DNA of 64,000 nt, taken from assembly GCA_050951545.1 (NCBI GenBank), contig JBMNJG010000007.1, positions 160,001 to 224,000 of the forward strand. Direction: 5' to 3'. The notes under the pieces are model-generated. The model searched no databases. It was given only the letters and a program-made list of their open reading frames with translations, and was not told the DNA's origin. Of the stretch, positions 31,220 to 49,130 are shown one piece after another. This DNA comes from Limnochordia bacterium. Lineage in GTDB: Bacteria > Bacillota > Limnochordia > DTU080. The translations under genes were made by a program, and so were the position numbers. The number at the start of each line of letters is the position of its first letter. Positions within the stretch are counted from its first letter, which is position 1.

Positions 31220-31798
31220 TCAGGCATCCAGGTGGGCAAGGCTCTTGATGATCTGCACGATGCGTGACAGACGTCGCTCACTCCACTCGCCCCACAGGAT
31301 AAGGTCTGCCACCGCCTTGGTCGGAGCTGTGAATGCTCGGTGGTTGTGCAACACGTCCTGGCGATACCACGAGATCACGTTGCCAAGGTCGAGTCCATGT
31401 TGGTTGACATTGCGCTCGACGCGCCGCAACACGCGTTCTTCGTCGTCCATGTCCACGTAGATGGAAAGGTCAACCATCTCGGCGAGCCAAGTGAAGGTGA
31501 GGCAAAGGTGGCCTTCGACAAGGTTGATGCGGCGAGGTTCGACGTTGTAGGCGGGGCGTTGTCCGCGAGCTGGCACATGTGCGGGTTCGCCCTGCCGCAG
31601 TGCATAGACTGCAGTCCGCAGTTGTTCTTCGTCGATGCTCTCAGGGCGGTTGTTTGTGGTCGTGCCCGGACGGAAGAAGGCATCGGTGCGCAGAATGCTC
31701 ACGTGATCCGCACCGATGCGCTCTTGCAGAGCGGTTACCAGCGTGCTCTTGCCTGCCCCGGTGCCGCCGCCTATGCCGATCAGAAGTGTTTGTCTCAT
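31220..31798 (-). CDS. Uridine kinase/phosphoribulokinase family kinase
   Basis: IGIGGGTGAGKST, LVEGHL, IYVD, RRVERN; GGAGGT RBS before ATG 31798. Confidence 0.85.
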   Translation of the reverse strand: MRQTLLIGIGGGTGAGKSTLVTALQERIGADHVSILRTDAFFRPGTTTNNRPESIDEEQLRTAVYALRQGEPAHVPARGQRPAYNVEPRRINLVEGHLCLTFTWLAEMVDLSIYVDMDDEERVLRRVERNVNQHGLDLGNVISWYRQDVLHNHRAFTAPTKAVADLILWGEWSERRLSRIVQIIKSLAHLDA

Positions 31799-31868
31799 GG
31801 AAGACCTCCAAACCATCGCATTGCGTGACCAATTCGGTTGCGATGGTTCGAAGTCCTGGCAGCGGGTG

Positions 31869-32403
31869 TCAGCGGCGTAGGCTACTCGCAGCCACCAGCG
31901 CCTCAAAGAGGCTGGCTACGCCTAGCGTAGCTGGCTCCTCAAGCAAGATACCGCCTGCGGCCTGGGTAGCGGCCAAGACTAACGGGTCTGCATTGGGAAC
32001 AGCTGCTGTGAGGTTGCCGCAGGAGCCATCGAGCATGGTGAGATCGTTGAGGGAGTCACCTACGGCCACTGCCTGGGACATGAGGAGCCCCAGATGCTCC
32101 ACGAGGTGTGCCAGAGCGAATCCCTTCCGGGAGAGGGGGTGACGCAGTGACAGCAGTCTACTGTTGCGGACAGGTATGAGAGCCGCTGCGTGGTTCTGCG
32201 CAATCTCATCAGCCAGAGCTAGCTGCTCGCGCTCATTGGTTAGATTGCGGACGGGGTGGGGGACAGGATGCCAGGTGGGTGAGGCGCAATCTGGGTCTAC
32301 GATGAACCTGCCCACGTGGGCCCAGCAGCGTACCATCGAGGTCGGTCGCAAGGAGCCGGATGGCAGCAAGTCTTTCGTCTGGGCAAAGCTGACTGTCTGG
32401 CAT
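31869..32403 (-). pseudogene. Broken Cof-type HAD hydrolase
   Basis: ATG 32403 frame has LLATDLDGTLL and then stops; RKG and VGDSLNDLTM motifs are in another frame; 535 nt total is too short, so most of the cap region is missing. Confidence 0.75.
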
Positions 32404-32586
32404 TAGGAAACCTCTCTCTGTTGGCAGCGTGCATGCGTGCCCTTGGTGGTCTGTGGAGCCTTGGGCATAGTTCTTGCCAGTGTGTGCCTCATCCTGCTTC
32501 GTGGCGTGAGAGCGGCGGCTCAGGGGTTGGCCGATGCGCAGATCAAGCTGACCAACATGCTGGCGAGCAGTCTCAAGCAGTAGCCG

Positions 32587-33807
32587 CTAGCCTACGTGGC
32601 TGAGGTAGGAGTCACCGCTCAAGGCTAGGGCGTAGGTATCACGGGCGATAACGATCTCCTCGTTTGTGGGGATCACCCAAACTTGCACAGGGCCTGTGGA
32701 GATACACCGCTCCGCTGGCCCCTCGATGTTAGTCTCGGCGTCAAGGGCGATGCCGAGGAACCCCATATTCTGGCATATTCTAGCCCGGCAACCGGCTGAG
32801 CGCTCCCCCACACCACCGGAAAAGACCAGGGTGTCAATTCCTCCCATGGCCGCGGCGTAGGCCCCGACATACTTACGACAGCGGTAGACAAAGGCGTCAA
32901 TGGCTAAACGGGCCCTGGCATTCCCCTGCGCGGCGGCTTCCGCTACTTCGCGATAATCGCTACTGATACCAGAGATGCCAAGCCAACCGCTTTTCTGGTT
33001 GAGCAGAGCATCCATGGCATCCGCATCTAGACCCTCCTTGCGCATCAGGAAGGTAACGGCCAGGGGGTCGATGTCGCCGCAGCGAGTAGATTGTACAAGG
33101 CCTTCTGTAGGGGTCAGGCCTGTACTGACGTCAACCGAGCGACCATGGCAGAAGGCGTTGGCGGTCGTACCGCTCCCCAGCATCAGCGAGACGATTTTCA
33201 ACTCAGATGTGGAACGTCTCATCAGCTGAGCGACGCGGCCTGTCATGTAGCGAAACGTAATACCGTGGAAGCCGTAACGCCGGACGCGGTACTTTTCGTA
33301 CAGTTCGTAAGGGATAGCGTACGTAAAGTGGGCAGGCGGCATGGCCTGGTGCAAGCCACTGTCAAAGACGGCGACCATTACCGCGTGCGGCATGAGCTTC
33401 TGGCATGCTCTAATGCCAGTGACGTTGGGTGGGTTATGCAGGGGAGCAAGCTCATAGAAGTCCTCAAGGGTCTGCAATACGTCTTTGGTGATGCGCACCG
33501 AACCTGTGTAGGTCTCTCCACCGTGTACGACGCGATGGCCTACCGCGTCGATATCCGTCGGATCTGCGACAGCACCTACCTCTGGGTCAAGCAGGGTTTC
33601 GAGGGCCATGGCGATAGCGTGTTGGTGATCCGCTACGGGACACCCGCGTACAAAAGGCTGTGCAAGAGGCCTTTCGTGTCTGACAACGGCATCTTGTCTG
33701 CCGATGCGCTCGACACTGCCTCGGGCCAGCACCTGCTCTGTGGGCATCTCCAAGAGCTGGTACTTCAGCGAAGAGCCGCCGCAGTTGAGCACCAATACCC
33801 TCACCAA
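32587..33807 (-). CDS. ackA: Acetate/propionate kinase family protein (BMC-associated copy 1)
   Basis: LVLNCGGSSLKYQL, GHRVVHGG, LAPLHNP, YGFHG, IPTNEE. Confidence 0.92.
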   Translation of the reverse strand: MVRVLVLNCGGSSLKYQLLEMPTEQVLARGSVERIGRQDAVVRHERPLAQPFVRGCPVADHQHAIAMALETLLDPEVGAVADPTDIDAVGHRVVHGGETYTGSVRITKDVLQTLEDFYELAPLHNPPNVTGIRACQKLMPHAVMVAVFDSGLHQAMPPAHFTYAIPYELYEKYRVRRYGFHGITFRYMTGRVAQLMRRSTSELKIVSLMLGSGTTANAFCHGRSVDVSTGLTPTEGLVQSTRCGDIDPLAVTFLMRKEGLDADAMDALLNQKSGWLGISGISSDYREVAEAAAQGNARARLAIDAFVYRCRKYVGAYAAAMGGIDTLVFSGGVGERSAGCRARICQNMGFLGIALDAETNIEGPAERCISTGPVQVWVIPTNEEIVIARDTYALALSGDSYLSHVG

Positions 33808-33821
33808 AGACCCCTCCCTGT

Positions 33822-35228
33822 CTAGTACTGAGCCAGGGCGTTGCAGACGGTTGCATTGCGCTGGCGGGTAAATGTGCGCGGAGTGCAGATCCCTTCACCT
33901 GTAGTGCTGGCCACAGTATGGGTGAATAGGCCCGTGCCCTCGATGCCCAGGCCCGCATAGGAAGGTCCGTTAACCACGACAATGGTTGTGTTAAGCGCCC
34001 GGATATACTGGTCAATGCGCTCGAGGCGCTGGCTGTGAATCTGGCCCGTATGGCCAAACCCTTGCTCCGCCTGAATGGCCAGCTGTAGGCCCTCGGAAAA
34101 GTCCTCTACCCGCACGACAGGAAGAATGGGCATCATCTGCTCGAGAAAAACCAGTGGGTGTTCAGCCGAGACTTCCATGATGGCGCCCAGAGTCTGTTGA
34201 GAAGCCTCAATACCAGCTGCCCGGAGGATAGCAGCAGCATCCTTCCCCACGAATTCGCCGTTGATGTGATTGTCTTTGACCACCAGGGTAGTAACCTTCT
34301 CGATGTCGCTTCCGCGCAGCCTAACGCAGCCAGCCTGCTCCATCTGCTCCATAAGCTGGTCGCATATCTCCGCCACGGCAAAGATAACTTTCTCAGCGAT
34401 GCACAGGATATTGTTGTCGAAGGTAGCTCCAGCGACGATATCCTGGGCGGCTTTGACGATATCCGCGGTTTCATCGACGAGCACGGGAGGGTTACCGGGA
34501 CCTGCGGCGATGGCTCGCTTGCCACTGGTCAGGGCGGCCTTGACTACCCCGGGTCCACCCGCAACGGTGACTAGGCTGATGGCAGGATGCGCCATCACTT
34601 CGTTTACAATCTCTACGCTTACTTTGTCCACAGCGACAAGCAGGTTGGCAGGTCCGCCAGCCGCTACGATTGCTTGGTTGACAGTGCGCAGGGCTTCTCT
34701 GGTGCATGCGGCTGCTCTAGGATGAGGGCAGCAAAAAACCGCATTGCCCGAAGCCACCATCATAATAGCCTGATTGATGATCATCGGCGTGGGGTGGGTG
34801 GTAGGCAGAATGCTACAGATAACCCCATAGGGTGCTGCCTGAGTAAGCGCAGTTCCGTAGGCGCCAGTCTGTACGTCTCTCAGCAGATCCTCGGTTCCCG
34901 GAGTGAGCTGAGCGGCGTTGATGTTCTTTTGCACCTTATGTTCGTAGCGCCCTAAGCCAGTTTCATCGATGGTCAACCGAGCAAAGCGCTCGGCGTGAGC
35001 TACCCCTGTCTCGCGGATAGCTGCAATCAGGCGTTCACGGCTAGCGAGATCAAGCTTAGCCAATTGCTTCTGGGCTTGGGCGGCCGCAGTTGCTGCTTGA
35101 TCGACGGTGGCAAAAACACCGTGTCCTAGCTCGTGATCCATATTCGGTGAGCTAGAGGGAGCGCTCTGTCTGAGGTTGGCCACCACTTGGGCCACAATCT
35201 CGGCAATACGTGCATTATCAATGGCCAT
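33822..35228 (-). CDS. CoA-acylating aldehyde dehydrogenase (EutE/PduP-like) with N-terminal encapsulation peptide
   Basis: NARIAEIVAQVVANL helix plus linker; DETGLGR, GPGNPPVLVDETAD, catalytic NNILCIAEK, TGEG. Confidence 0.93.
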   Translation of the reverse strand: MAIDNARIAEIVAQVVANLRQSAPSSSPNMDHELGHGVFATVDQAATAAAQAQKQLAKLDLASRERLIAAIRETGVAHAERFARLTIDETGLGRYEHKVQKNINAAQLTPGTEDLLRDVQTGAYGTALTQAAPYGVICSILPTTHPTPMIINQAIMMVASGNAVFCCPHPRAAACTREALRTVNQAIVAAGGPANLLVAVDKVSVEIVNEVMAHPAISLVTVAGGPGVVKAALTSGKRAIAAGPGNPPVLVDETADIVKAAQDIVAGATFDNNILCIAEKVIFAVAEICDQLMEQMEQAGCVRLRGSDIEKVTTLVVKDNHINGEFVGKDAAAILRAAGIEASQQTLGAIMEVSAEHPLVFLEQMMPILPVVRVEDFSEGLQLAIQAEQGFGHTGQIHSQRLERIDQYIRALNTTIVVVNGPSYAGLGIEGTGLFTHTVASTTGEGICTPRTFTRQRNATVCNALAQY

Positions 35229-35309
35229 ATCGACACCTAACCAGCTTGCCTGGCTAGGAAGCACCTCCCTAAGGAATCGTGTTATGCCTGCGGTTGCCTC
35301 GATGTGGGG

Positions 35310-36116
35310 CTAACCGTCGATGGCTGTCAGTACTTCCTGCGCTACTTTGGTTATCAGGCGGACAAGCTCCTCTTCATTCATGCGGGACGCCGGTCGCTGC
35401 TCAGTGGTCACACGGCCCTCAGCGTCGACGACAGGGCTTGACGTGCAAGACTCTGATACAGCAGGATGGCGACCCTGGATACCCATTTTCTGGCGTACCT
35501 CCAGGAGTTTGTCTACGTTTTGGGCTGATATCTCCCTTTCGCCTCCGAGCATCCGGGCGGCGAGACTGATCTGGGCAGCTAGTTCGATGGTCTCCATCTT
35601 GTAATAGGCATTGAATAGATCGGTACCGACCGTCAGGGCGCCGTGATTCTCAAGGAGAACCGCATCGTGACACCCAAGGTGATCCTTCAGGGCTTCTGGT
35701 AGTTCCTGGGTGGAAGGGGTACCGTAGCGCGCTACGGGTATCCAACCCAAGCTGATGACGACTTCGGGCATGATGGGTTTGTAGATAGGCATACCAGCGA
35801 CGGCAAATGCCGTAGCGTGTGGCGGGTGGGCATGCACGACAGATTGGGTATCTGGTCGCATTTCATATACCGCCAAGTGCATCTTCAACTCTGAGGATGG
35901 TTGCAGACGACCAGAAATCTTCTGACCTTGCATATCCACCTTGATGATCATGTCGGGCGTCATAAAGCCCTTGCTTACGCCGGTCGGTGTGGTAAGAAGA
36001 TGGTGGTCACCTAGCCTAACCGTGATGTTGCCGTCGTTGGCGGCCACAAAGCCCCGTGACCATATGCGACGACCAATCTCACAGATGTCTCTGCGCAACT
36101 CAAACTCGGAAGGCAT
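35310..36116 (-). CDS. Class II (fuculose-1-phosphate-like) aldolase with C-terminal encapsulation peptide
   Basis: ANDGNIT, TPTG, PSSE, VHAHP, ENHG all intact; tail NEEELVRLITKVAQEVL. Confidence 0.92.
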   Translation of the reverse strand: MPSEFELRRDICEIGRRIWSRGFVAANDGNITVRLGDHHLLTTPTGVSKGFMTPDMIIKVDMQGQKISGRLQPSSELKMHLAVYEMRPDTQSVVHAHPPHATAFAVAGMPIYKPIMPEVVISLGWIPVARYGTPSTQELPEALKDHLGCHDAVLLENHGALTVGTDLFNAYYKMETIELAAQISLAARMLGGEREISAQNVDKLLEVRQKMGIQGRHPAVSESCTSSPVVDAEGRVTTEQRPASRMNEEELVRLITKVAQEVLTAIDG

Positions 36117-36133
36117 GGTTTGTTACCCCCGTT

Positions 36134-36176
36134 ATATCGGCAAGTGGATGAAGCATATCGGCGATTGTTTCGACAA
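36134..36176. promoter_or_regulatory. Candidate operator in the divergent BMC promoter region
   Basis: ATATCGGC direct repeat at 36134 and 36155 (21-bp period) and TTGT-N4-ACAA at 36165-36176. Confidence 0.35.
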
Positions 36177-36301
36177 CGGAGGCGAGGGCTCCTGCGGTCT
36201 GCGCAATTTGGGTCAGGTGATACCAGGAACGCAGTCTGTGCGCGTGGAAGTAACCAAAACCGGGAGTCGATGATGCGCAAGAGACCCGGTACCTGGAGGA
36301 T

Positions 36302-37156
36302 ATGAACATGGTGGCACTAGAACCCCAGATACGTCGCGATATGGTTGCCGTAGGCAGAGAGTTGTCAGCAGCGGGGCTCGTTACCTCTACGCACGGCAGT
36401 CTTTCAGCACGTCTCGATAGCGACCTCATATTGGTTACACCATCAGGGGTGGCTAAAGGTGAGCTTACTCGGGCGAGCGCCGTGAAGATCTCACTCAGCG
36501 GCAAACGAGAGTTCGTCGGTGCTAAGCCGACTTCTGCGTTGCCTTTGCACAAAGCGCTCTACACAACATCGCCTGCAGCAGCCATCGTGCACGGGCTGCC
36601 TAGCCACGCTCTCGCTACCCTGAAATCCGTGTCGGCCTCTCTGGAAAGCGGGCAGAGTGAACATGTCAGGCTGGGGGCCACGTCGGTGCTCGTGGTCGGA
36701 GGAGCCAATGCAAGTCAGGCTGCGGAAGCGATTGAGGCGGCTTTAGGAGATGCTCAGGCAGTCTGTGTAGACGGTCTCGGCCTTTTCACTTGGGGCAACA
36801 ACCTTGCGTTGGCTATGGGAAAACTGCAGTCGCTCGAGGAGGTCGCTGCTTCCTCACAGAGCGCGCCCGTTGCCCATGCCGAGCGATCTGATGCAGAAAG
36901 GCCTGTGGGGCAGTCGGGTACGCAGCTGGTTGCGGGAGAAGCCTCCCCTGTGGCGAGTACCGGGATTTCCGTCTCTCCTCGTACCTACAGCGAAGCGTGC
37001 AATGCCTGCGGGTTGTGCACTAACAGTGGGGGTTGTGTGCCCTCTGCGCGGCAAGAGGTAGCTTTGGACGCCCTCCATCGGCTTACGGATGCTGAGCTCG
37101 TGGCGCTTGTTGTCGAAGCCACGCGCGAAGTGCTCACGGAGAAGGGGCTTTTATGA
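36302..37156 (+). CDS. Degenerate class II aldolase-fold protein with Cys motif and encapsulation peptide
   Basis: GSLSAR/VTPSG/LPLHKALY aldolase N-terminus, catalytic residues replaced; CNACGLC-x5-C; tail LTDAELVALVVEATREVL. Confidence 0.85.
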   Translation: MNMVALEPQIRRDMVAVGRELSAAGLVTSTHGSLSARLDSDLILVTPSGVAKGELTRASAVKISLSGKREFVGAKPTSALPLHKALYTTSPAAAIVHGLPSHALATLKSVSASLESGQSEHVRLGATSVLVVGGANASQAAEAIEAALGDAQAVCVDGLGLFTWGNNLALAMGKLQSLEEVAASSQSAPVAHAERSDAERPVGQSGTQLVAGEASPVASTGISVSPRTYSEACNACGLCTNSGGCVPSARQEVALDALHRLTDAELVALVVEATREVLTEKGLL

Positions 37157-37716
37157 GTGCTCAATCTCCTACGAGTCGTTCAGCGTTGGGCTTGGTAGAG
37201 CTGCGCGGGGAGCTGGCAGGCTTTCAGCTGCTCGATATTGCCATCAAACACGGTGGCGTCGGTTCTGCCTTTGGCCGTCCGGTGTGCCCGGGCAAGTTTC
37301 TGGTGTTTTTGTCGGGTAGTGTGGCTACTGTGCGTTCTGCATTGGCGGCTGGAGTCGCCTCTGGCGTCGGAATGCAGACCGCACCTGTGGTGTTGCCAAG
37401 CGTGCATGCCGATGTGTGGCCAGCCCTTACAGGTACGACAGATGGTGCAGATGGGGATGGCCTGGCTGTACTGGAGACCTACTCTGCGTCATCAGCTGTG
37501 TTGGCCGCCGATGCTGTAGCCAAGGCGGCTGGAGTGCAGCTGCTACGTATTCGTTTGGCCAGTGGGCTGGGGGGCAAAGGCGTTGTGTTTCTCTCCGGAC
37601 TCGTCGCTGATCTGCGTGAGGCTGAGGTCGTAGCTCAACGAGTCGCGGGCGACCATCTTCTGGATAGTCGCGTGCTCGCGTCACCACATCCTCGTGTGTG
37701 GCAGTTCGTGTTGTAG
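37153..37716 (+). CDS. pduT: BMC-T tandem shell protein (PduT-like)
   Basis: ALGLVE, VCPGKF, AADAVAKAA, GLGGKG. Confidence 0.85.
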   Translation: MSAQSPTSRSALGLVELRGELAGFQLLDIAIKHGGVGSAFGRPVCPGKFLVFLSGSVATVRSALAAGVASGVGMQTAPVVLPSVHADVWPALTGTTDGADGDGLAVLETYSASSAVLAADAVAKAAGVQLLRIRLASGLGGKGVVFLSGLVADLREAEVVAQRVAGDHLLDSRVLASPHPRVWQFVL

Positions 37717-37809
37717 CACTGGGCGCTCGACACCGCCCGCGAGGAACCAGTGAGACAAGACGCGCTGATGCAGGGCGCGGGCAGGACTTGTGAAAGGGGG
37801 CCGTTTGCG

Positions 37810-38109
37810 GTGATCCTGGGCAAAGTGGTGGGTACCGTCGTCTCTACGCAAAAGGATCCCAACCTGGTTGGGCTGAAGCTTCAGTTGGTTCAGGCTGTCA
37901 GTGTGAAGGATCAGCAGCCCGAGGGACGGACCCTGGTGGCGGTTGACAGTGTCGGGGCAGGTGTAGGGGATCTGGTGATGTTGGTGACTGGTAGTTCGGC
38001 GCGGCTGACCGCTCTCACGCGTCAAGCTCCCACCGATGCTACCATCGTGGCCATTGTCGATATTGTGGAAGTCGACGGGACGGTCGTTTTTGGCGGAGGA
38101 CAGCTGTGA
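37810..38109 (+). CDS. eutN: BMC-P vertex protein (EutN/CcmL)
   Basis: GKVVGTVVSTQKDPNL, VAVDSVGAGVGD, GSSAR, DATIVAIVD; start moved to GTG 37810. Confidence 0.95.
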   Translation: MILGKVVGTVVSTQKDPNLVGLKLQLVQAVSVKDQQPEGRTLVAVDSVGAGVGDLVMLVTGSSARLTALTRQAPTDATIVAIVDIVEVDGTVVFGGGQL

Positions 38110-38396
38110 AATTCGCGCAGGTGATCGGCACAGTAGTCTGTGTGCAACAGGACAGTGCCCTGGACGGCATCAAATTACTGGTTCTGCAGCCGCTGAGCCA
38201 AGACTTGCGTCCAGCTGGCTCTGCTTACATCGCGGCTGATGGCACCCGCCAGGCCGGATACCAGGATATTGTGGTCGTCGTTTTCAGAGGCGATGCGCCC
38301 AATGTGTTTGAGCATTGGGTAGCAGTGGATGCCAGCATCGTCGGCATCGTCGATCCCTACTGTGTTCGCCAGCTCAGCGGTCGTCAGAAAGGATAG
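38106..38396 (+). CDS. BMC-P vertex protein (EutN/CcmL), divergent
   Basis: AQVIGTVV, LDGIKLLVLQP, VDASIVGIVD. Confidence 0.88.
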   Translation: MKFAQVIGTVVCVQQDSALDGIKLLVLQPLSQDLRPAGSAYIAADGTRQAGYQDIVVVVFRGDAPNVFEHWVAVDASIVGIVDPYCVRQLSGRQKG

Positions 38397-38400
38397 GCGC

Positions 38401-38670
38401 ATGTTTCTCGCGAAAGTGATTGCTCCGGTTGTCTGTTCAGTCATGCATCCCGCCTTCTCTGGCAAAGCCTTTCTGCTGGTTGAACAGGTAGAGCCCGGCG
38501 GCGATGATGGCGGCGAGTATCGTCTGGCGGTAGATTACGTGGGCGCCGGAGCTGGCGACATGGTGGTTGCAGGAGGACCGCCGGGCCTGGGAGAGATGCT
38601 GGGCCTGCCGCGTGCCCCAATCAGCACATGGGTCATGGCCATCGTGGAAAGGGCTGAAAGGCGCGAATGA
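38401..38670 (+). CDS. BMC-P vertex protein (EutN/CcmL), divergent
   Basis: MFLAKVI, AVDYVGAGAGD, VMAIVE. Confidence 0.85.
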   Translation: MFLAKVIAPVVCSVMHPAFSGKAFLLVEQVEPGGDDGGEYRLAVDYVGAGAGDMVVAGGPPGLGEMLGLPRAPISTWVMAIVERAERRE

Positions 38671-39866: not shown

Positions 39867-39881
39867 AAGGCGGAATAGCCT

Positions 39882-41659: not shown

Positions 41660-41673
41660 TCGTTTACGGGTGA

Positions 41674-42336
41674 ATGAAAATGGACGAGCAGCTTGTGCAA
41701 GAGATTAGGGCCAGGGTTTTTCAGAAGCTGGCCGAAACGGGCCTGGCGGCCCATCTCGATGAGATTCCTGTCGGTATCTCCGTGCGCCACGTGCATGTAT
41801 CGCAGGCGGACCTTGAGCACCTGTATGGGCGAGGTCATCAGTTGACGAAACTGCGGGACCTGCGTCAGCCCGGGGAGTATGCAGCCCAGGAGGTCGTGGC
41901 TCTGGTCGGGCCTAAGATGCGCACTCTCGAGAATGTGCGTATTCTCGGTCCCTGCCGTGATCAGACACAGGTGGAGCTGGCTCGGACAGATGCCATTATC
42001 TTGGGGCTCAATCCACCTGTCCGGCGTTCCGGTGATCTGGCGGGATCCTCACCTATTTCTCTGGTGGGGCCCAAGGGTGTGTTGACTCTGCCCGAGGGAT
42101 GCATTATCGCCAATCGACACATGCATATGGGCCCTGAGGATGCCCGACGTTTTGGAGTCAAAGACAACGATATCGTCTCTGTGGAAGTGAGTGGCGACAA
42201 GGGACTCGTCTTCCACCACGTGCAGGTGCGGGTGCGCGAAGGCTGGGTACTCGAGATGCATCTCGATACTGATGATGCCAATGCTGCCTGCATCACCTGT
42301 GGTGCTCAGGCGCGTATCCGGCCCGAGGTGGCTTGA
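41674..42336 (+). CDS. pduL: Phosphotransacylase PduL with N-terminal encapsulation peptide
   Basis: ISVRHVH, QPGEYA, QVELARTD, RHMHM, EMHLDTDDANA; N-term DEQLVQEIRARVFQKL. Confidence 0.95.
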   Translation: MKMDEQLVQEIRARVFQKLAETGLAAHLDEIPVGISVRHVHVSQADLEHLYGRGHQLTKLRDLRQPGEYAAQEVVALVGPKMRTLENVRILGPCRDQTQVELARTDAIILGLNPPVRRSGDLAGSSPISLVGPKGVLTLPEGCIIANRHMHMGPEDARRFGVKDNDIVSVEVSGDKGLVFHHVQVRVREGWVLEMHLDTDDANAACITCGAQARIRPEVA

Positions 42337-43664
42337 TGGTGATGGACGCTTTAGTGACGGCGGTTCGCGATGCAGGAGTGGTGGGAGCTGGTGGGGCTGG
42401 TTTTCCCACTCACGTGAAGTTAGCGGCCCAGGTAGAGTGCATTATCGTCAACGGAGCAGAGTGCGAGCCACTGCTCCACGTAGACCAGGAGTTGGCGAAG
42501 GCGTACGCACCTGAGTTGGTGGAGGCCCTGCGGGCCTGCATGTCCTCAACAGGGGCTAGCGCGGGTATTTTCGCCCTTAAGGAAAAGTACCGAGAGGCAA
42601 GGGGTGCTCTGACCGCGGCGGTCGCCGGACAGGCGGGCCTGTCGGTGTTTGCCTTGGAGAACTCCTACCCGGCCGGTGATGAGCACGTTTTGGTGCATGA
42701 GGTGACCGGACGCGTGGTTCCCGAAGGGGGGATACCGCTCAATGTCGGCATCGTCGTGCTCAACGTAGAGACGCTGTACAACATATGGTCGGCACTTCAG
42801 GGGCAGCCAGTCACGGACACCTTCGTTACAGTGTGCGGAGAAGTGAAGCAGCCAGCTACCCTGCGGTTGGCAGTAGGTACATCCATCGCGGATGCTCTGG
42901 CGGCAGCGGGCGGAGTGACCTGTGAGAATCCGGCGATCATCCACGGCGGACCGGTGATGGGTAGCCTGGTAGAGTCTGCTGAGGCGCCAGTCACGAAGAC
43001 GACCAAGGGGCTCGTCGCGCTACCGATGGATCATCCTCACGTGCGCCGCATGCGCAGGCCCGTAAGCGTCTCCCTAGAAAGAGCAATCACCGCGTGCTGC
43101 CAATGTCGACAGTGTAGCGACCTGTGTCCGCGTGCCCTTCTGGGACACAACATCGCGCCTCATAAGATCATGCGAGCTGCTGGCTATGCGTTGACGAAGG
43201 ATCCTGCGGTGTGGACTGCCGCGTTTTTGTGCAGCGAATGCGGCGTGTGTGATACCTTTGCCTGTGGGGCTGATCTCTCACCGCGCCAAGTGTATCGCAG
43301 CGTGAAGGCGCAGTTGGCAGCAGCGGGCGTGAAGAACCCACATAAGGCTACACCCACCCCGCTGGAAGAGCTGGTCTACAGGCGTGTTCCTACCGAGCGC
43401 TTGATTTGGCGTATGGGTTTAGAGCCCTATGTGATGGGAGCGCCGTTGGTACGCGAGGTCCTGCTTCCAGCGGTAGTCAAAGTTCCGCTGAAACAGAATG
43501 CAGGAGCAGTCTCGGTACCTGTCGTGAAAGTCGGTGAACGTGTGAGTCGCGGTCAGCTGGTGGCCGAGCCTCCCCCAGATGCGTTGGGGGCCCGGCATCA
43601 CGCCAGTGTGACAGGAACCGTGACTGCTGTGGGTAACGAGGTGAGTATTGAGCGTGAAGCCTGA
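42333..43664 (+). CDS. pduS: PduS/RnfC-like flavin/Fe-S oxidoreductase
   Basis: GVVGAGGAGFPTHVK, NGAECEP, YPAGDE, GGPVMG, CCQCRQCSDLCP, CSECGVC; followed by a PduT-like gene. Confidence 0.9.
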   Translation: MMVMDALVTAVRDAGVVGAGGAGFPTHVKLAAQVECIIVNGAECEPLLHVDQELAKAYAPELVEALRACMSSTGASAGIFALKEKYREARGALTAAVAGQAGLSVFALENSYPAGDEHVLVHEVTGRVVPEGGIPLNVGIVVLNVETLYNIWSALQGQPVTDTFVTVCGEVKQPATLRLAVGTSIADALAAAGGVTCENPAIIHGGPVMGSLVESAEAPVTKTTKGLVALPMDHPHVRRMRRPVSVSLERAITACCQCRQCSDLCPRALLGHNIAPHKIMRAAGYALTKDPAVWTAAFLCSECGVCDTFACGADLSPRQVYRSVKAQLAAAGVKNPHKATPTPLEELVYRRVPTERLIWRMGLEPYVMGAPLVREVLLPAVVKVPLKQNAGAVSVPVVKVGERVSRGQLVAEPPPDALGARHHASVTGTVTAVGNEVSIEREA

Positions 43665-44241
43665 CACCCTAAGAAGCGCAGATAGAGGGCTTGCCGTGGC
43701 CGTGGTAGAGCTGCACACGACGGCTGTTGGCCTGGCGGCAGCTGATACTGTGTTAAAGACGGCTGATTGCCCGCTATTTAAGGCAAACACAGTCTGCCCG
43801 GGTAAGTTTCTGCTTCTATTTGGTGGTCAACTGGCCGCTGTGCAAGAGGCCTATGCACTTGTTCAGAAAACTTACCAGGGAGAGTTGCTTGACGCCTTTT
43901 TTCTAGGGCAGATCTCCGATCAGTTGCTCGATGGGCTGAGCGGAGAAGGTGAGCCAACTGCCACTGTCGGGCTGGCTGTGGGAGTGATTGAGACCTTTAG
44001 CGCAGCGAGTGCGATCGCGGCCGCTGATGCGGCGGTCAAGGCAGCTGAGGTGCAGCTCTTGGACGTCAGGCTGGCTCAGGGAATGACAGGCAAGGGTGTG
44101 GTCTACCTTTCCGGCACGGTGGCGGCCGTGGAGACCGCCCTACAGGCAGGCGCTGAGGCGGTGCGCGACAGCGGCAATTTGTGTGCCACTGGCTGCCTTC
44201 CTTCTCCTCATGAATCACTGTGGCGCTCCCTCTTGGGCTAA
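43648..44241 (+). CDS. pduT: BMC-T tandem shell protein (PduT-like)
   Basis: AADTVLKTA, TVCPGKF, GVIETFS, AADAAVKAAEV. Confidence 0.9.
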   Translation: MSVKPDTLRSADRGLAVAVVELHTTAVGLAAADTVLKTADCPLFKANTVCPGKFLLLFGGQLAAVQEAYALVQKTYQGELLDAFFLGQISDQLLDGLSGEGEPTATVGLAVGVIETFSAASAIAAADAAVKAAEVQLLDVRLAQGMTGKGVVYLSGTVAAVETALQAGAEAVRDSGNLCATGCLPSPHESLWRSLLG

Positions 44242-44274
44242 GGCGCTACGTTTAGTAAAGAGGTGCTACCTGTA

Positions 44275-45726
44275 ATGGATGAGCAGCGTTTGGCTGCAAT
44301 TGTGCAAGAGGTACTGCAACAACTCAGAGGCGAAAATGGGGATGTAAAGCCCTCACCTGCCCCCGCAACTCCCGCTACAGCGCCAGTTGGCAAGTCACTT
44401 CCCGAGGTGGGCGGAGGGGTTTTTGCCTCGGTGGATGAGGCTATTGCGGCGGCGAGCAAGGCGCACAAAGAGCTCGTGGCCCTGGGACTGGAAGAGCGAG
44501 AAAAGCTGGTAGAGGCCATGCGTCAGGCCGCTTTAGCGGCAGCAGAGAGGCTGGCTCGACAAGCTTATGAGGAGACTGGCTTAGGGCGCTATGAGCACAA
44601 GATCGGCAAGAACCGCGATGCCGCTCGTCTGACTCCTGGTACAGAGGACATAGCCAGTCAGATTATCACGGCCAATAAGGGCACGGTGCTCATCGAGCAC
44701 AGCCCTATGGGAGTGGCGGTGTCCATTACGCCGACCACGAACCCGAATGCGACGATCATCAACCATGGCATTGGCATGGTGGCAGCTGGGAATGCATGCT
44801 TTTTTGCTCCGCATCCTCGGAGCCAAGCAAGCTCTTTGGAGACGTTACGTGTGCTCAATACCGCTATAGCGAAGGCTGGCGGCCCTGAAAACTGTTTGGT
44901 AGCGGTGACAGAAGCAAAGCTTGATGCGGTCAACGCTGCTATGCAGCACCCCCAGGTGCGCTTGGTGGTGGCTACAGGTGGGGCGAGCTTGGTGAAAGCT
45001 GCGTTGTCATGCGGCAAGCGGGCAATCGCCGGCGGCCCGGGGAATCCTCCCGTATTGGTGGATGACACAGCTGATCTGGCCCGGGCAGCGGCAGGGATTT
45101 TGGCTGGTGCGGCCTTAGACAATAACTTGCTGTGCATCGCCGAGAAAGTGGTCATCGTGCAAGAGAGCGTGGCGACTCCTTTCATGCGCCAGCTACTGCA
45201 GCTACCAGTCGTGGAGCTGCGCGGCTCAGACACCGCTCGTCTGACAGAGCTGGTCGTCAAAGATGGACACATGAACCCAGCCTATATCGGTAGGGACGCT
45301 GCGGTGATCCTCAAGGATATCGGGGTTCGCGCTGATGCGGATGTACAAGCGATTGTGGTCGAGGTGGACGAGCGTCATCCGCTGGTGCAGCTCGAACAGC
45401 TGATGCCCATTTTGCCCGTGGTGCGGGTGGGCAGCTTTGCCCAAGGGTTGGCGTTGGCTGTCGAGGTGGAGCACGGCAATCGCCACACTGCCATCATCCA
45501 TTCTCAGAATCTGGACCGGATCACGAGCTACGGTCGGGCCATTCGGCCTACGCTGCTTGTCTGCAACGCGCCGAGCTATGCTGGACTGGGTGTGGATGGT
45601 GCTGGGCCGATTACGCTTACGGTTGCCGGACCTACGGGTGAGGGAATCGTGACTGCCAAGCACTTCACAAGGGAGAATCGGGTGATCCTGGGGCACGGTG
45701 CGCTTACAGTGATCGCTGGCGATTGA
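44275..45726 (+). CDS. CoA-acylating aldehyde dehydrogenase (EutE/PduP-like) with N-terminal encapsulation peptide
   Basis: MDEQRLAAIVQEVLQQL plus Pro/Ala linker; EETGLGR, PTTNP, GPGNPP, NNLLCIAEK, GPTGEG. Confidence 0.94.
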   Translation: MDEQRLAAIVQEVLQQLRGENGDVKPSPAPATPATAPVGKSLPEVGGGVFASVDEAIAAASKAHKELVALGLEEREKLVEAMRQAALAAAERLARQAYEETGLGRYEHKIGKNRDAARLTPGTEDIASQIITANKGTVLIEHSPMGVAVSITPTTNPNATIINHGIGMVAAGNACFFAPHPRSQASSLETLRVLNTAIAKAGGPENCLVAVTEAKLDAVNAAMQHPQVRLVVATGGASLVKAALSCGKRAIAGGPGNPPVLVDDTADLARAAAGILAGAALDNNLLCIAEKVVIVQESVATPFMRQLLQLPVVELRGSDTARLTELVVKDGHMNPAYIGRDAAVILKDIGVRADADVQAIVVEVDERHPLVQLEQLMPILPVVRVGSFAQGLALAVEVEHGNRHTAIIHSQNLDRITSYGRAIRPTLLVCNAPSYAGLGVDGAGPITLTVAGPTGEGIVTAKHFTRENRVILGHGALTVIAGD

Positions 45727-45745
45727 GCATGTTGGGGGCTGCGAA

Positions 45746-46543
45746 ATGCTGAACATGGTTGTCTGCCTGAAACAGGTTCCGGGAACGACGGAGGTCGAGA
45801 TCGACAGTGAGCGAGGGACCCTCAAGCGCGAGGGGGTCGATGCGCGCACTAACGCCTATGATCTTCACGCGCTTGAGTTGGCGGTCGCCCTGAAGAACAA
45901 GCACGGTGGATCGATCACGGTGCTGTCAATGGGGCCCCCGCAGGCCCAGGCTGTCATTAGGGAAGCGTACGCGTTGGGGGCCGATCGCGGTATCTTGCTT
46001 TCGGACCGTAAGTTTGCTGGAGCGGATACGTTAGCGACAGCTTTCACGCTCGCCCAGGCCATAAGGAAGTTGGCTACGCCGCACCTCGTGCTCACTGGGA
46101 TGCAGACCAGCGACGGCGACACTGCTCAAGTGGGACCAGCCTTGGCCGAAATATTGGGAATCCCACATGTATCCTATGTGCGCAAGTGTATAGAGGCTAG
46201 TCCCGGATGCTCAGTGATGGTAGAGGCCGAGATGTCCGAGTGCACGGAGACGTTACGGGTCAGTTTCCCTTGTCTGTTGACCTGCACCAAGGACGTCGGG
46301 CGTCTGCGGTTGCCCTCTTACCGCTTGCTAGTGGCCACGCGAGACAAGCCGATAGAGGTCTGGTCGTACGAAGATATCAAGCATGACGATGGCCAGGAGC
46401 ACTTTGGGCTCGATGGATCGCCCACGCGAGTGGAGAAAGTCTTCCCGCCCAGTTTCGAGCAACAGCGGCAGGTATGGGAAGCACCTGCCCAGGAGCTGGC
46501 TGAGCGGGTGTTGGAGAAGCTGGAGGAGCTGAAGGTGCTATGA
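45746..46543 (+). CDS. etfB: Electron transfer flavoprotein beta subunit
   Basis: VCLKQVP, SMGPPQA, GADTLAT, DGDTAQVGP. Confidence 0.95.
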   Translation: MLNMVVCLKQVPGTTEVEIDSERGTLKREGVDARTNAYDLHALELAVALKNKHGGSITVLSMGPPQAQAVIREAYALGADRGILLSDRKFAGADTLATAFTLAQAIRKLATPHLVLTGMQTSDGDTAQVGPALAEILGIPHVSYVRKCIEASPGCSVMVEAEMSECTETLRVSFPCLLTCTKDVGRLRLPSYRLLVATRDKPIEVWSYEDIKHDDGQEHFGLDGSPTRVEKVFPPSFEQQRQVWEAPAQELAERVLEKLEELKVL

Positions 46544-47751
46544 GCGGGGTGCTTGTCGACAGGGATGCGTGTACGCTCTGTGGGGCCTGTATGGACGCGT
46601 GCCCTTTCGGTGCGATTGAGCTTAAGGAGTCACAGCTTGTCATCACTGATGAGTGTCGATTGTGCGGAGCTTGTGTAGAGGCGTGCCCGCAGGGTGCTCT
46701 CTCTATACAGGAGGAGAGCACAATGGACCAGGTAGATCTGAGCACTTACTCTGGCGTTCTAGTTTTTGTGGAACAGACAGATGGTCAGATCCATCAGGTC
46801 AGTTATGAGATGATGGGCAAGGGGTTAGAGCTGGCACGATCGTTAGATCAGAAGCTCTATTGCTTGGTTGCTGGCCACCAGATTAGGCAGCAGGCCACGG
46901 ATCTGCTCAACTACGGAGTGGATGCCGTATACTGGTATGATCACCCTGCCTTGCGCCGTTATCGAGCAGAGCCGTACACGAGTGCGGTTTGTGATCTGGT
47001 GCAGGAGATTCGCCCGAACATCATTCTGATCGGTGCTACGCATGTCGGCCGATCGCTGGCGCCGCGGGTGGCCACTCGCCTTCGCACAGGCCTGACGGCG
47101 GACTGCACGAGTCTGGATGTGCGGGAAAACGGGGATCTGGTCCAGACCCGGCCGGCCTTTGGTGGTAACGTCATGGCGCGCATTCTCACACCTCACCATC
47201 GTCCGCAGATGGCCACGGTGCGCTACAAGGTGATGGAGAGAGCGACACGGGTAGATAGCCCCGATGGCGTCTTGATAGCTCGCTCTCTGCCGCAGGGGGA
47301 TCTGAACTCGGGCATTGAGATTGTGGATATTGTGCAGAGCGCCGCTGCAGCCTCGATTACGGAAGCAGATATTGTGGTAACTGCTGGCAGGGGAGCTGGC
47401 AATGAACGCGGGTTGGCTTTGGTGAGCGAGTTGGCCCAGAGCCTGGGCGGAGTGGTAGGTGGAAGCCGGCCTCTCGTGGAGCAAGGCCTCCTCTCTCACA
47501 TGCAGCAGGTGGGGCTATCGGGGAGGACGGTGCGCCCCAAGCTTTACGTAGCCTGTGGAGTTTCCGGTGCTGTGCAGCATGTGGCTGGCATGCAGGGTTC
47601 TGATTGCATCATTGCGATCAACAAGGACAAAAACGCGCCCATCTTCGAAGTAGCTCACGTGGCTGTTGTTGGTGACATATACGAGGTGTTGCCGCGTCTG
47701 ATAGAGCTCATAGGAGGTAGGGGTGGCCATGGCAACTGCACAGCTTCGTAA
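46540..47751 (+). CDS. etfA: Electron transfer flavoprotein alpha subunit with N-terminal 2x[4Fe-4S] domain
   Basis: CTLCGACMDACP and CRLCGACVEACP; GLTADC, RPAFGG, QVGLSG, GVSGAVQH. Confidence 0.95.
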   Translation: MSGVLVDRDACTLCGACMDACPFGAIELKESQLVITDECRLCGACVEACPQGALSIQEESTMDQVDLSTYSGVLVFVEQTDGQIHQVSYEMMGKGLELARSLDQKLYCLVAGHQIRQQATDLLNYGVDAVYWYDHPALRRYRAEPYTSAVCDLVQEIRPNIILIGATHVGRSLAPRVATRLRTGLTADCTSLDVRENGDLVQTRPAFGGNVMARILTPHHRPQMATVRYKVMERATRVDSPDGVLIARSLPQGDLNSGIEIVDIVQSAAAASITEADIVVTAGRGAGNERGLALVSELAQSLGGVVGGSRPLVEQGLLSHMQQVGLSGRTVRPKLYVACGVSGAVQHVAGMQGSDCIIAINKDKNAPIFEVAHVAVVGDIYEVLPRLIELIGGRGGHGNCTAS

Positions 47752-49130
47752 GATTAGCGAGGCCGACATCCAGGCATTGCGAGCGATCGTGGGACGGGAC
47801 TACGTGCGGGTAGGCACCGAGATTCCCGATGACTATGCCCGCGATGAGCTGGCTCACGAACGGGTTCTTCCGGACGTGTTGGTAGAACCCGGGTGTACTC
47901 GTGAGGTCTCCGAAGTCATGCGCTATGCCTATCAGCGTGACCTGCCTGTTACGCCGCGGGGCACGGGCACCGGGCTCTGTGGTGGTGGGGTGGCGACCTA
48001 TGGTGGTATCATGCTATCCACATTGCGCCTCAACCGCATACTGGAGATCGATCAAGAGTGCCTCATGGCTACTGTTGAGCCAGGTGTGATCCTGCTTGAC
48101 TTCCAGAAGGAAGTGGAGAAGATCGGCCTTTTCTATCCCCCCGATCCGGGTGAGAAAAGTGCTACCTTGGGCGGCAATGTCAGCACCAACGCGGGTGGCA
48201 TGCGGGCCGTGAAATACGGGGTCACACGAGACTACGTGCGGGGCATGGAGGTTGTGCTGCCCAACGGTGACGTGACTGAGTTCGGGGGTAAGCTCTCAAA
48301 GAACTCCTCGGGTTACGGTTTGCTGCATCTTCTGGTGGGCTCTGAGGGTACCCTCGGCATCATTACCAAGATCGTCTTGCGGCTTATCCCTCTACCAAAG
48401 AAGCGGGTTTCGCTGTCTAGTCCCCTTTGCGTCTTTGGAAGAGGCGATTCGCACTGTGCCGAAAGTCATCATGACGCGAACGGGTCCCACGGCAGTGGAA
48501 TTCATGCAGAGCGATGTGATTCATGCCTACGAGGCGAACATGGGCAAATCATTCCCCCATTCGGACGCGCCAGCCTACCTTCTTCTGCTCTTTGATGGTA
48601 ACTCCGCGTCGGAATTGGAGGCTGCCTATCAAGCTGCTGCTGAGGCTTGTCTGGCTGAAGGCGCCCTGGACGCTCTTATTGCCGATACGAGTGACCGCCA
48701 CGCTGCCGTCTGGGACGCCAGGGGAACCTTCCTGGAAGCTCTGAAGGCAGTCAGCGAGCTGGAACTCGCTGACGCTGTCGTGCCACCTCACCTTATTCCC
48801 GATTTCGTCACTTTCTGTGACTCCCTGGGTAGGAAGTACGGCGTAAAGGTGCTAACCTTTGGGCACGCAGGTGATGGCAACTGCCACATTCACATTCTTA
48901 GGGAGAAAATCGATGATGACGCCTGGCAGGCGGTGTATCCGCAGGTCATGAATGAAATCTACCGCAAAGGCCATGAGCTTGGCGGACAGGTTTCTGGTGA
49001 GCACGGTATAGGAGCAGCCAAGCGCCCGTACCTGCATCGCTGGGTTGGCGACATCAACCTTCAGCTGATGCGGGAGATCAAAGACTGCTTTGATCCTAAG
49101 GGAATCCTCAACCCTGGGAAGGTGATCTAG
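47729..49130 (+). CDS. FAD-dependent D-2-hydroxyacid (lactate/glycolate) dehydrogenase, LctD/GlcD-like; split by a one-base insertion near 48416
   Basis: PRGTGTGL, YPPDPG, NAGGMRAVKYG, GSEGTLG in frame 1; GHAGDGNCH, SGEHGIG, DPKGILNPGK in frame 2; deleting T48416 gives KRVSLLVPFASLEE. Confidence 0.9.

Follow-up and report, generated by a model that had tools for sequence, protein, structure and literature searches.

An unusual aldolase microcompartment locus of a Limnochordia bacterium that adds a second aldolase fold and an Ldh-EtfAB module to a common core

Here we describe a bacterial microcompartment (BMC) locus in a 64-kb stretch of DNA (the window, G000:C7:160001-224000) from a metagenome-assembled genome (MAG) of a Limnochordia bacterium (G000, 3.64 Mb, 94% complete). 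The locus occupies window positions 31220-49130 and represents an unusual variation on the aldehyde-handling microcompartments already known. At a probability of roughly 0.55 we read it as encoding a single metabolosome with two aldolase-headed branches, in which PduS and PduT-like shell proteins would recycle NAD+ and an Ldh-EtfAB complex, the flavoprotein-linked lactate dehydrogenase, would act outside the shell. DNA near-identical to the window is also present in bioreactor, landfill and biogas metagenomes.

In the pathway that we infer, the first branch belongs to a core shared among Limnochordia. AldoII_A, an Aldolase_II protein within the shell, would cleave L-rhamnulose-1-phosphate or L-fuculose-1-phosphate to dihydroxyacetone phosphate (DHAP) and lactaldehyde. 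The acylating aldehyde dehydrogenase AldDH1 would convert lactaldehyde to lactyl-CoA, PduL would yield lactyl-phosphate and the acetate-kinase homologue AckA1 would yield lactate and ATP. The second branch would have been added in this genus and would begin with an aldolase of the fructose-bisphosphate aldolase fold (FBA). Targeted by its own C-terminal helix, FBA would cleave a ketose phosphate lacking a distal phosphate to DHAP and a second free aldehyde, to be processed alike by AldDH2, PduL and AckA2. NAD+ would be recycled without an alcohol dehydrogenase, electrons passing from PduS to an Fe-S cluster in the pore of the PduT-like tandem shell protein (BMC-T). A further Aldolase_II protein, AldoII_B, would have no catalytic function, its role being that of a scaffold for cargo or an adaptor to the shell. 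Outside the shell an LctBCD-like Ldh-EtfAB would oxidise lactate to pyruvate, with LarA racemising it first if it were the L form.

Gene families were called with Pfam and NCBIfam. A genome-wide profile search placed 6/6 PF00936 matches of G000 inside the window at 37183-44208, and this is therefore the sole shell-gene locus of G000. All metabolosome shell classes are present (PF00936, PF03319), namely two BMC-H, two BMC-T and three BMC-P proteins. The genes form two divergent operons (Table 1). The minus-strand operon runs AldoII_A, AldDH1 and AckA1, then a HAD remnant and a uridine-kinase-like gene. On the ORF (open reading frame) map the plus-strand operon (36302-49130) holds 17 genes, tightly spaced or overlapping, in the order AldoII_B, BMC-T1, three BMC-P, AckA2, FBA, two BMC-H, PduL, PduS, BMC-T2, AldDH2, EtfB, EtfA and LctD. 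No glycyl radical enzyme, diol dehydratase, ethanolamine lyase, DeoC/RpiB or alcohol dehydrogenase was found among the scanned ORFs of 31220-49130. Terminal extensions of the encapsulation-peptide type reach past the catalytic domains of all three aldolases, both AldDHs and PduL. A preliminary description of this DNA had given the same inventory, the same absences and a likeness to the PVM compartment of Planctomycetes/Verrucomicrobia. Every gene that it named was found in its place by Pfam and NCBIfam, the absences hold, and the PVM-like character is supported by the PF00596 aldolase with its targeting tail, the BMC-P triplet, acetate kinase, AldDH and PduL. Three corrections are needed. LctD is split into two ORFs, the HAD remnant and the uridine-kinase-like gene are to be added at the left end, and BMC-P3 most likely starts at 38401, given the extent of its Pfam match and the presence of Met25 (the ORF is listed from 38329).

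PF00936 matches occur in 12/41 relatives, G000 included, and the loci of the other 11 were mapped by tblastn. AldoII_A, an AldDH and PduS/BMC-T lie in the mapped loci of 11/11 of these shell-bearing relatives, while the mapped stretches yielded AckA for 10 relatives and PduL for 9. The AckA of 10/11 is an orthologue of AckA1 (56-81% identity). This core, comprising an Aldolase_II with a C-terminal targeting helix, AldDH, PduL, AckA, PduS, PduT-like BMC-T and three BMC-P, is the BMC type commonly met with in Limnochordia. The order AldoII_A, H(-H), AldDH, PduS, T, AckA is shared by eight genomes belonging to three other families, and in 6/8 a block of T, three P, PduL, PduS and T comes next, at times on a second contig. 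In G004, of the same family and another genus, AldoII_A-AldDH1 lies opposite a very diverged AldoII_B, followed by T, three P, H, H, PduL, PduS and T; after AldDH1 come LarA, an FGGY kinase resembling rhamnulokinase (443 bits, cut-off 528) and a Zn-dependent alcohol dehydrogenase.

The additions are far more restricted. A tailed full-length FBA, AckA2, AldDH2 and EtfBA-LctD occur together in only 2/11 relatives (G001 and G002, both of the same genus) and on the metagenome contigs L077 and L078. In these four the whole gene order is kept at 62-90% protein identity. The combination had initially seemed unlike any characterised BMC type. This may hold for the additions as a set, which were seen only in the genus, and not for the core, which is common, nor for the tailed FBA by itself, which recurs across phyla. 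Likewise, of the co-occurrence looked for in related loci, FBA accompanies shell genes in G001, G002, L077, L078 and L042, whereas the Etf module does so only within the genus.

The two branches are also reflected in the AldDHs. A tree of 14 of these enzymes separates AldDH2 of three genus members and the AldDH of the Firmicutes MAG UBA5435 from AldDH1 and the other nine (support 100/99), with AldDH1 grouping with those of G004 and other Limnochordia, which are linked to Aldolase_II. The UBA5435 branch is long and its placement less sure. Two AldDH clades, each tied to another aldolase fold, fit two branches; thus each fold appears to travel with its own AldDH type and, by AckA identities, with its own kinase. 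The dual-branch design of the preliminary description is upheld to this extent, while the nature of the second aldehyde and its claim of alpha-hydroxy aldehydes in both branches go further than the data.

For the first branch, G000 encodes a true FucI, a RhaI_grampos protein (608 bits, above the cut-off), an orthologue of the G004 FGGY kinase (52% identity) and LarA (59% identity to the G004 copy); PF06134 RhaA and RhaM were not found in this genome. Given LarA, FucI, RhaI_grampos and the FGGY kinase orthologue, the branch is most simply read as leading from L-rhamnose or L-fucose to lactate, and then through LarA and Ldh-EtfAB to pyruvate. AldoII_A keeps the NDGN, SSE, HxH and NHG motifs, with the FucA-type phosphate loop, the Glu and the three Zn His. 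Its tail of ~55 residues runs past residue ~207 of solved homologues and ends in an amphipathic helix.

AldoII_B is a different case. It has lost NDGN, two of its three Zn His and, other than in G002, the catalytic Glu, so that by its residues it is predicted to be catalytically dead, as the preliminary description had it. The CxxCxxC motif and the terminal helix are nevertheless conserved in 4/4 genomes that have AldoII_B, including G001, G002 and the much diverged G004, and its stop codon overlaps the start of BMC-T1. The protein may therefore be a non-catalytic cargo scaffold or shell adaptor, for which the defunct AldDHs of GRM1 loci offer a precedent. As described in PMC4207490, those loci also retain a dead paralogue of a core enzyme. 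Here, by contrast, the dead protein is a paralogue of the signature aldolase, with CxxCxxC and targeting helix preserved and with translational coupling to a BMC-T gene. A CxxC(G/S)xC motif between catalytic domain and terminal helix was seen in two unrelated folds, in the active Aldolase_II of G013 (L028 12960-13727) and AldoII_B on the one hand and in FBA on the other.

The FBA heads the putative second branch. Its residues 1-281 align with solved fructose-1,6-bisphosphate (FBP) aldolases (best 7NCC, 262 bits), and after the barrel come a Cys knuckle (C-x6-C-x2-C-x2-C), a linker and a C-terminal amphipathic helix. In an AF2 model (44 sequences, mean pLDDT 83) the barrel is followed by a weak hairpin around the Cys motif, then by a disordered linker of low confidence (302-315) and a helix spanning 320-338. 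The Zn ligands and catalytic Asp (D82, H83, H181, H209) are invariant in the 44 aligned sequences. Phe256 stands at the position of the Arg in the DPRK motif of canonical FBAs; its equivalence to Arg280 of the H. pylori enzyme was read from alignment offsets (chain 22-302 against query 2-282), with a register good to 1-2 residues. According to PMC10665668 (JBC 2023), this inter-subunit Arg binds the 6-phosphate and is Ala257 in the sulfofructose-1-phosphate aldolase SqiA. The canonical set (two solved Bacillus-type enzymes, those of an Alicyclobacillus and a Sulfobacillus locus, and G000's own copy on C12, which reads DPRD) retains the Arg, whereas 6/6 tailed FBAs aligned from genome loci have Phe or Tyr, the Tyr being found in Sumerlaeota homologues. 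Moreover, the DPRK motif is missing from six further tailed representatives. Its absence from our metagenome set is partly built in, one scan pattern being that very motif, and is not counted as evidence. Loss of the 6-phosphate Arg favours a ketose phosphate without a distal phosphate as substrate. Candidates would be ketohexose or pentulose 1-phosphates, yielding glyceraldehyde or glycolaldehyde; 6-deoxy-ketohexose 1-phosphates, yielding lactaldehyde; or an IolJ-like keto-acid phosphate. The proposal that two kinds of ketose-1-phosphate are cleaved is thus in keeping with FBA as a ketose-monophosphate enzyme, and it outruns the evidence as to which the second substrate is.

It might be argued that FBA is an ordinary ketose-1,6-bisphosphate aldolase, acting on FBP or tagatose-1,6-bisphosphate (TBP), so that the second branch would have glyceraldehyde-3-phosphate as its aldehyde, or FBA would do no more than link DHAP to central metabolism. 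The full set of Zn and catalytic residues is retained, true FBP aldolases are the best solved matches over residues 1-281, and the top NCBIfam match is the ketose 1,6-bisphosphate aldolase PRK06801. Its 370 bits are, however, under the cut-off of 406, and the replacement of the 6-phosphate Arg runs counter to a bisphosphate substrate. The PfkB kinases that adjoin tailed FBAs elsewhere could be of the 1-phosphofructokinase (1-PFK) or tagatose-6-phosphate kinase types, yet they fit IolC/ribokinase models over 1-PFK (167 against 65-68 bits). G000 already has a canonical FBA on C12, and a phosphorylated aldehyde would be an odd substrate for an AldDH of the PduP/EutE type. We consider this alternative unlikely and retain a monophosphate ketose as the favoured substrate. 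Orthology to IolJ or SqiA was rejected, since IolJ/FbaA-type models score far under their cut-offs and SqiA scores lower than FBP aldolases. SqiA (PMC10665668), IolJ and YdjI (6OFU) share with FBA the PF01116 fold, the Zn site, the replaced 6-phosphate Arg and frequent pairing with PfkB. FBA is, however, matched by SqiA at 201 bits and by YdjI at 206 bits, no better than by FBP aldolases at 262 bits, and solved chains of the SqiA/IolJ/YdjI type end near query residue 282, where FBA goes on into its Cys knuckle and targeting helix. Elsewhere in G000, a cytosolic sugar cluster (L076, G000:C10:33021-44999) holds a tail-less FBA-fold aldolase without the DPRK Arg, a paralogue of the BMC branch, along with a PfkB kinase, a weak fucose-isomerase-like gene, RpiR, an FGGY kinase, KduI/IolB, GFO/IDH oxidoreductases and an FAD-oxidase_C protein. 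The cluster as a whole looks like a pathway of the inositol type.

Tailed FBAs form a cargo-like family that recurs in different phyla, and we regard this family as the most novel element of the locus. Scanning genomes turned up a copy of 60% identity in UBA5435, whose compact BMC operon (DeoR, tailed FBA, H, H, PduL, AldDH, PduS, BMC-T, PfkB) has it as sole aldolase. In two Sumerlaeota MAGs the tailed FBA lies apart from the shell genes, which sit on other contigs. Across 75 Sumerlaeota genomes the tailed FBA was present in 11 and shell genes in 41. All 11 genomes with the tailed FBA bear shell genes and 0/34 shell-less genomes carry it, a co-occurrence that is suggestive, although several of these genomes may be close kin and the count is not a statistical test. 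With G000-G002 and G041, shell genes were found in 15/15 of the examined genomes that carry a tailed FBA. A profile search of 1.84 billion representatives was considered through its best 150 matches. Of the 12 inspected, 7 have an extension of this kind; in one of the 7 it is inserted internally, and another is a frameshifted copy of the genus's own protein. In P0005 (323 aa) the Cys motif and an amphipathic helix-like stretch are inserted within the FBA catalytic domain instead of at the C-terminus, and in P0034, P0074 and P0104 (408-413 aa) the FBA fold is fused to an unidentified C-terminal domain of ~120 residues. A metagenome scan gave 80 loci, 57 of them complete with a tail of at least 35 residues; 51/57 have a CxxC and 39 fit the four-Cys pattern. 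A PfkB kinase directly follows the tailed FBA in eight loci. The order AckA (52-54% identity to AckA2), FBA, PfkB is seen in L079 and L080, whose kinases are 59-62% identical to that of UBA5435 (best model IolC, under the cut-off).

The Cys-rich tails could instead be a regulatory or oligomerisation module that binds metal or Fe-S, in which case FBA would be cytosolic and owe its place in the operon to co-regulation only. Neighbours of tailed FBAs are often housekeeping genes, and in 17/18 metagenome loci where the tailed FBA has 8 kb or more of flanking sequence in all, no shell gene lies nearby. Moreover, the hydrophobic moments of the tails (0.47-0.75) are not discriminating, as native helices at other termini are equally high. 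This explanation sits poorly with the distribution among genomes given above and with the tailed FBA as the only aldolase of the UBA5435 operon. The layout of domain, linker and helix is also that of Aldolase_II cargo in the 2015 review of encapsulation peptides (PMC4594438), and the CxxC(G/S)xC occurs too in tails of Aldolase_II proteins from BMC loci. We think it improbable and hold to encapsulation of FBA. The same review, in the part that deals with aldolase linkers, gives them 5.5% Cys and "no sequence conservation".

More tentatively, and at somewhat less than even odds, the FBA with Cys knuckle and terminal helix may be an unrecognised metabolosome signature enzyme of several phyla, usually encoded away from the shell genes and often with an IolC-like PfkB. 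As such it might supply the aldehyde in fragmented or 'orphan' BMC types, which have an AldDH and lack a known signature enzyme. In the present genus it would have been drawn into the main locus together with its own AldDH, kinase and Ldh-EtfAB, giving one shell with two aldolase pathways, and the shared CxxC(G/S)xC would bind metal or Fe-S for cargo assembly. On an unrelated metagenome contig (L133 2393-4970) an LctD/GlcD-family gene lies directly upstream of a tailed FBA, with 48% and 38% identity to the LctD halves, and is a second link between tailed FBA and a 2-hydroxyacid dehydrogenase. The unknown neighbour genes in L133 and L079 had no useful solved homologue. Conserved +1 and +2 genes follow the tailed FBA in the Sumerlaeota-like loci L043, L045, L091, L092, L095, L097 and L107. 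On L045 these are EPSP synthase and DAHP synthase by Pfam, with the other loci matched by clustering, and they have no apparent link to an aldolase.

Turning to redox, PduS has the four domains of the metabolosome NADH dehydrogenase (MNdh), namely pfam01512, SLBB, a 4Fe-4S dicluster and a C-terminal RnfC_N, in the order described in PMC11626177 (PNAS 2024). The pore Cys is present in 12/12 aligned BMC-T (ten CPGK, one CPGY and one CSGK), and both BMC-T of the window read VCPGK. As PMC11626177 sets out, PduS/PduT regenerates NAD+ and 361 loci have no alcohol dehydrogenase; this route explains the absence of that enzyme here. In that paper the measured Fe-S potentials are -147, -217 and -349 mV, no specific co-occurring acceptor is given, and the in vivo acceptor of BMC-T(SE) is called unknown, a small Fe-S or flavin protein being proposed. 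The window locus agrees with the MNdh/BMC-T(SE) systems of that paper in its four-domain PduS, pore-Cys BMC-T, co-occurring AldDH and lack of alcohol dehydrogenase, and differs in having a flavoprotein complex with a ferredoxin domain directly downstream.

This complex is closest to that of Acetobacterium woodii, as had been suggested. 7QH2 is the best solved match for all three subunits: the intact LctD of G002 scores 526 bits against A. woodii LctD (chain C; next match glycolate oxidase, 252 bits), EtfA 386 bits against chain A and EtfB 246 bits against chain B. As in A. woodii (LctBCD, PMC9232219), the order is EtfB, EtfA, Ldh, with an Ldh of the VAO family, and EtfA bears an N-terminal ferredoxin domain. 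The window EtfA has two cluster motifs (CxxCxxCxxxCP), like CarE, whereas that account gives A. woodii LctC one. Furthermore, the window genes form the tail of a BMC operon with no adjoining racemase or permease, LarA being elsewhere in G000. No targeting or other terminal extension is visible on the Etf-LctD subunits, and the complex is for this reason probably cytosolic.

Could Ldh-EtfAB serve the organelle as an external electron sink instead of oxidising lactate? Electrons from PduS/PduT would then enter the EtfA ferredoxin domain and reduce pyruvate to lactate, replacing the alcohol dehydrogenase. EtfB starts 20 nt after AldDH2 in the operon of PduS and BMC-T2, EtfA has a 2x[4Fe-4S] domain, a small Fe-S or flavin protein has been proposed as acceptor of BMC-T(SE) (PMC11626177), and the Fe-S potentials lie near or below the pyruvate/lactate couple of ~-190 mV. 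Nine other Limnochordia loci and UBA5435, however, have PduS/PduT and no Etf module, LarA in the G004 locus points to lactate consumption, and the docking that the idea calls for is without evidence. The A. woodii enzyme, moreover, is described as oxidising lactate physiologically with reduced ferredoxin (PMC9232219). Such a sink is therefore rather improbable, and lactate oxidation remains the preferred role. Electrons from PduT are also unlikely to drive lactate confurcation, as potentials of -147 to -349 mV are not at ferredoxin level.

In the window, LctD consists of two overlapping ORFs (47723-48595 and 48435-49130), owing to one surplus base near 48415 relative to G001 and G002, in which the frame is intact. 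Contigs from 3/3 other DNA runs, one each from X1, X7 and X12 (depths 31, 21 and 8) and ~99% identical to the window, lack this base, so that the break is most likely an indel of this assembly and the gene appears to be intact in the population. The reading of LctD as a pseudogene was rejected as the less probable one on the same three contigs. They also lack one base at 36291 in the intergenic region. These single-base insertions suggest indel errors in this assembly, and other apparent frameshifts of G000 need care. Contigs of X1 and X7 span AldoII_A, AldDH1 and AckA1, and AldDH1 is therefore real. In a biogas metatranscriptome (X15), contigs identical (100%) to parts of AckA1, AldoII_A, AldoII_B, AckA2, PduS, EtfB and LctD hint at expression, though weakly, since RNA libraries can carry DNA and contigs give no expression level.

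The frameshifted LctD, the truncated HAD gene and the lost catalytic residues of AldoII_B might together be taken for a decaying mosaic and not a working system. We find this very hard to credit. The surplus base is missing in three independent assemblies, gene order and protein sequence are kept in the two congeners and two metagenome contigs, and the AldoII_B tail is conserved across genera. The X15 matches to seven locus genes point the same way, weakly, as DNA carry-over is possible.

A number of observations nonetheless count against a working two-branch metabolosome of the kind proposed. AldoII_A falls under every NCBIfam equivalog cut-off and its top match is a decarboxylase model; the best FucA model gives 107 bits against a cut-off of 264, and the best overall, of the OtnC type, 146 against 250. 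Neither the locus nor the sequence next to it has a gene for a sugar kinase, isomerase, transporter or regulator. G001 and G002 lack AldDH1 as well as the HAD remnant and the uridine-kinase-like gene, and two AldDHs are thus not essential for this design. The register of the critical Arg comes from alignment offsets and no structure, and the FBA catalytic domain shares ~50% identity with true FBP aldolases. L077 is the only one of the 18 well-flanked tailed-FBA metagenome loci with shell genes nearby, and G000 has no close orthologue of the PfkB that is associated with tailed FBAs (best match 26-27% identity). Lastly, the LctD frame is broken in the window assembly.

Among known systems the nearest is PVM, which handles L-fucose and L-rhamnose (Erbilgin 2014, via PMC4207490 and PMC8217296). 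As represented in these two papers, it shares with the window locus a C-terminally targeted PF00596 signature aldolase, an acylating AldDH, a phosphotransacylase (PTAC, PduL), acetate kinase, the BMC-P triplet and lactaldehyde as the aldehyde. The window locus differs in lacking an NAD+ recycler of the lactate/malate dehydrogenase type and DeoR (none was found in 27391-52120). It has PduS and two PduT-like BMC-T in the main locus, whereas 18/20 such modules of PVM are in satellite loci according to PMC11626177. Further additions are an aldolase of a second fold, provided with a separate AldDH and kinase, a catalytically dead paralogue of the first aldolase, and Ldh-EtfAB; the host is a member of the Limnochordia (Bacillota). 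Loci with class II aldolases outside Planctomycetes appear in the same two catalogues (Axen 2014, PMC4207490; Sutter 2021, PMC8217296) as PVM-like and SPU-like. The SPU-like loci of Latescibacteria, as PMC4207490 portrays them, resemble the window locus in AldDH, PduL, PduS, a class II aldolase and an acetate-kinase-like gene; SPU-like loci have an RpiB-like gene that is not in the window locus. PVM-like loci stand, in the relevant list of PMC11626177, among the types with neither NAD+ recycling system, whereas the window locus has PduS/PduT. The main texts of both catalogues make no mention of an FBA-fold aldolase, fructose, Etf or Limnochordia. Full-text literature searches returned no paper on FBA-type BMC cargo and none on Limnochordia BMCs, the single match naming Limnochordia once and concerning Limisphaera.

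Metabolosomes are classed by their signature enzyme, and a second self-targeted aldolase fold would, if true, add a class. Sutter 2021 (PMC8217296) lists BMC types with an AldDH and no known aldehyde source (ACI, FRAG1-7, HO, MIC2-7, MUF2-3), to which the tailed FBA could help to assign function. One shell with two sets of aldolase, AldDH and kinase would be a natural multi-substrate organelle, of engineering interest. The operon link to Ldh-EtfAB suggests a route for the acid product back into the metabolism of an anaerobe, and the complex is a candidate partner for the PduS/PduT electron acceptor. The Cys motif beside targeting helices in two unrelated cargo folds, moreover, is a concrete lead on cargo assembly.

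Table 1. Features of the BMC locus, in window coordinates.
Feature	Position	Strand	Evidence and remarks
Uridine-kinase/PRK-family P-loop kinase	31220-31906	-	PF00485, 52 bits; true start probably an internal Met; membership of the system doubtful
HAD (Cof-type) phosphatase remnant, 5'-truncated, C-terminal part only	31869-32369	-	Hydrolase_3, profile positions 177-239 of 255
AckA1, acetate/propionate-family kinase, Aldolase_II branch	32587-33807	-	PF00871, 408 bits
AldDH1, acylating aldehyde dehydrogenase, N-terminal targeting helix	33822-35264	-	PRK15398, 561 bits; probable start Met13 at 35228
AldoII_A, FucA/RhaD-like class II aldolase, predicted active, with linker and targeting helix at the C-terminus	35310-36116	-	PF00596, 177 bits
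Divergent intergenic region between the operons	36117-36301	.	ORF map
AldoII_B, predicted dead Aldolase_II paralogue, CxxCxxC and C-terminal targeting helix	36302-37156	+	PF00596, 101 bits
BMC-T1, PduT-like tandem BMC protein, pore Cys	37153-37716	+	Two PF00936 domains; VCPGK motif
BMC-P1 (EutN/CcmL-type)	37750-38109	+	PF03319, 99 bits
BMC-P2 (EutN/CcmL-type)	38106-38396	+	PF03319, 63 bits
BMC-P3 (EutN/CcmL-type)	38401-38670	+	PF03319, 57 bits, residues 25-106
AckA2, kinase of the FBA branch	38667-39866	+	PF00871, 427 bits
FBA-fold class II aldolase with C-terminal extension	39882-40901	+	PF01116, 330 bits
BMC-H1	41029-41304	+	PF00936, 109 bits
BMC-H2	41363-41659	+	PF00936, 105 bits
PduL phosphotransacylase, N-terminal helix extension	41674-42336	+	PF06130, 250 bits, from residue 32
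PduS, metabolosome NADH dehydrogenase (MNdh)	42333-43664	+	Complex1_51K, SLBB, Fer4_17 and RnfC_N in permuted order
BMC-T2, PduT-like tandem BMC protein, pore Cys	43648-44241	+	Two PF00936 domains; VCPGK motif
AldDH2, acylating aldehyde dehydrogenase, FBA branch, N-terminal targeting helix	44263-45726	+	PRK15398, 550 bits; probable start Met5 at 44275
EtfB (LctB-like)	45746-46543	+	PF01012
EtfA (LctC-like), N-terminal 2x[4Fe-4S] ferredoxin domain	46540-47751	+	ETF, ETF_alpha, two Fer4 stretches
LctD-like FAD-dependent lactate dehydrogenase, frame broken here	47723-49130	+	FAD_binding_4 and FAD-oxidase_C

A promoter and terminator scan of 30400-50000 gave 5 promoter-like and 16 terminator-like sites against 6.5 and 11.9 in shuffles, and hence no signal; no promoter-like site was found in the intergenic region. 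An Rfam scan of 30000-50500 (E <= 0.1) returned zero matches. The HAD remnant is absent from G001 and G002, and its stretch shows no listed indel relative to the other assemblies. For the uridine-kinase-like gene the top NCBIfam match is uridine kinase (102 bits, under the cut-off of 180), and the gene is not present in the same-genus loci L023 and L026. A role as ketose kinase was ruled out on this match and on its absence from G001 and G002. In Alicyclobacillus (L046), a Bacillota MAG (L049) and Sulfobacillus (L052), an FBA homologue is followed by a homologue of this gene at 30-34% identity; the FBA homologues of L046 and L052 retain the DPRK Arg. The flanks of the locus, with BREX, MatE, YdjC, PHP, BNR, HepT/MNT and GFO/IDH genes, offered no clue to the substrate. 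BREX-like defence genes lie upstream at 11496-15551, one for a protein with a BrxB domain and another for a product of 1148 aa that matches DUF6079 weakly. Immediately downstream, the minus strand carries a toxin-antitoxin pair of the HepT/MNT (nucleotidyltransferase) kind at 49767-50647.

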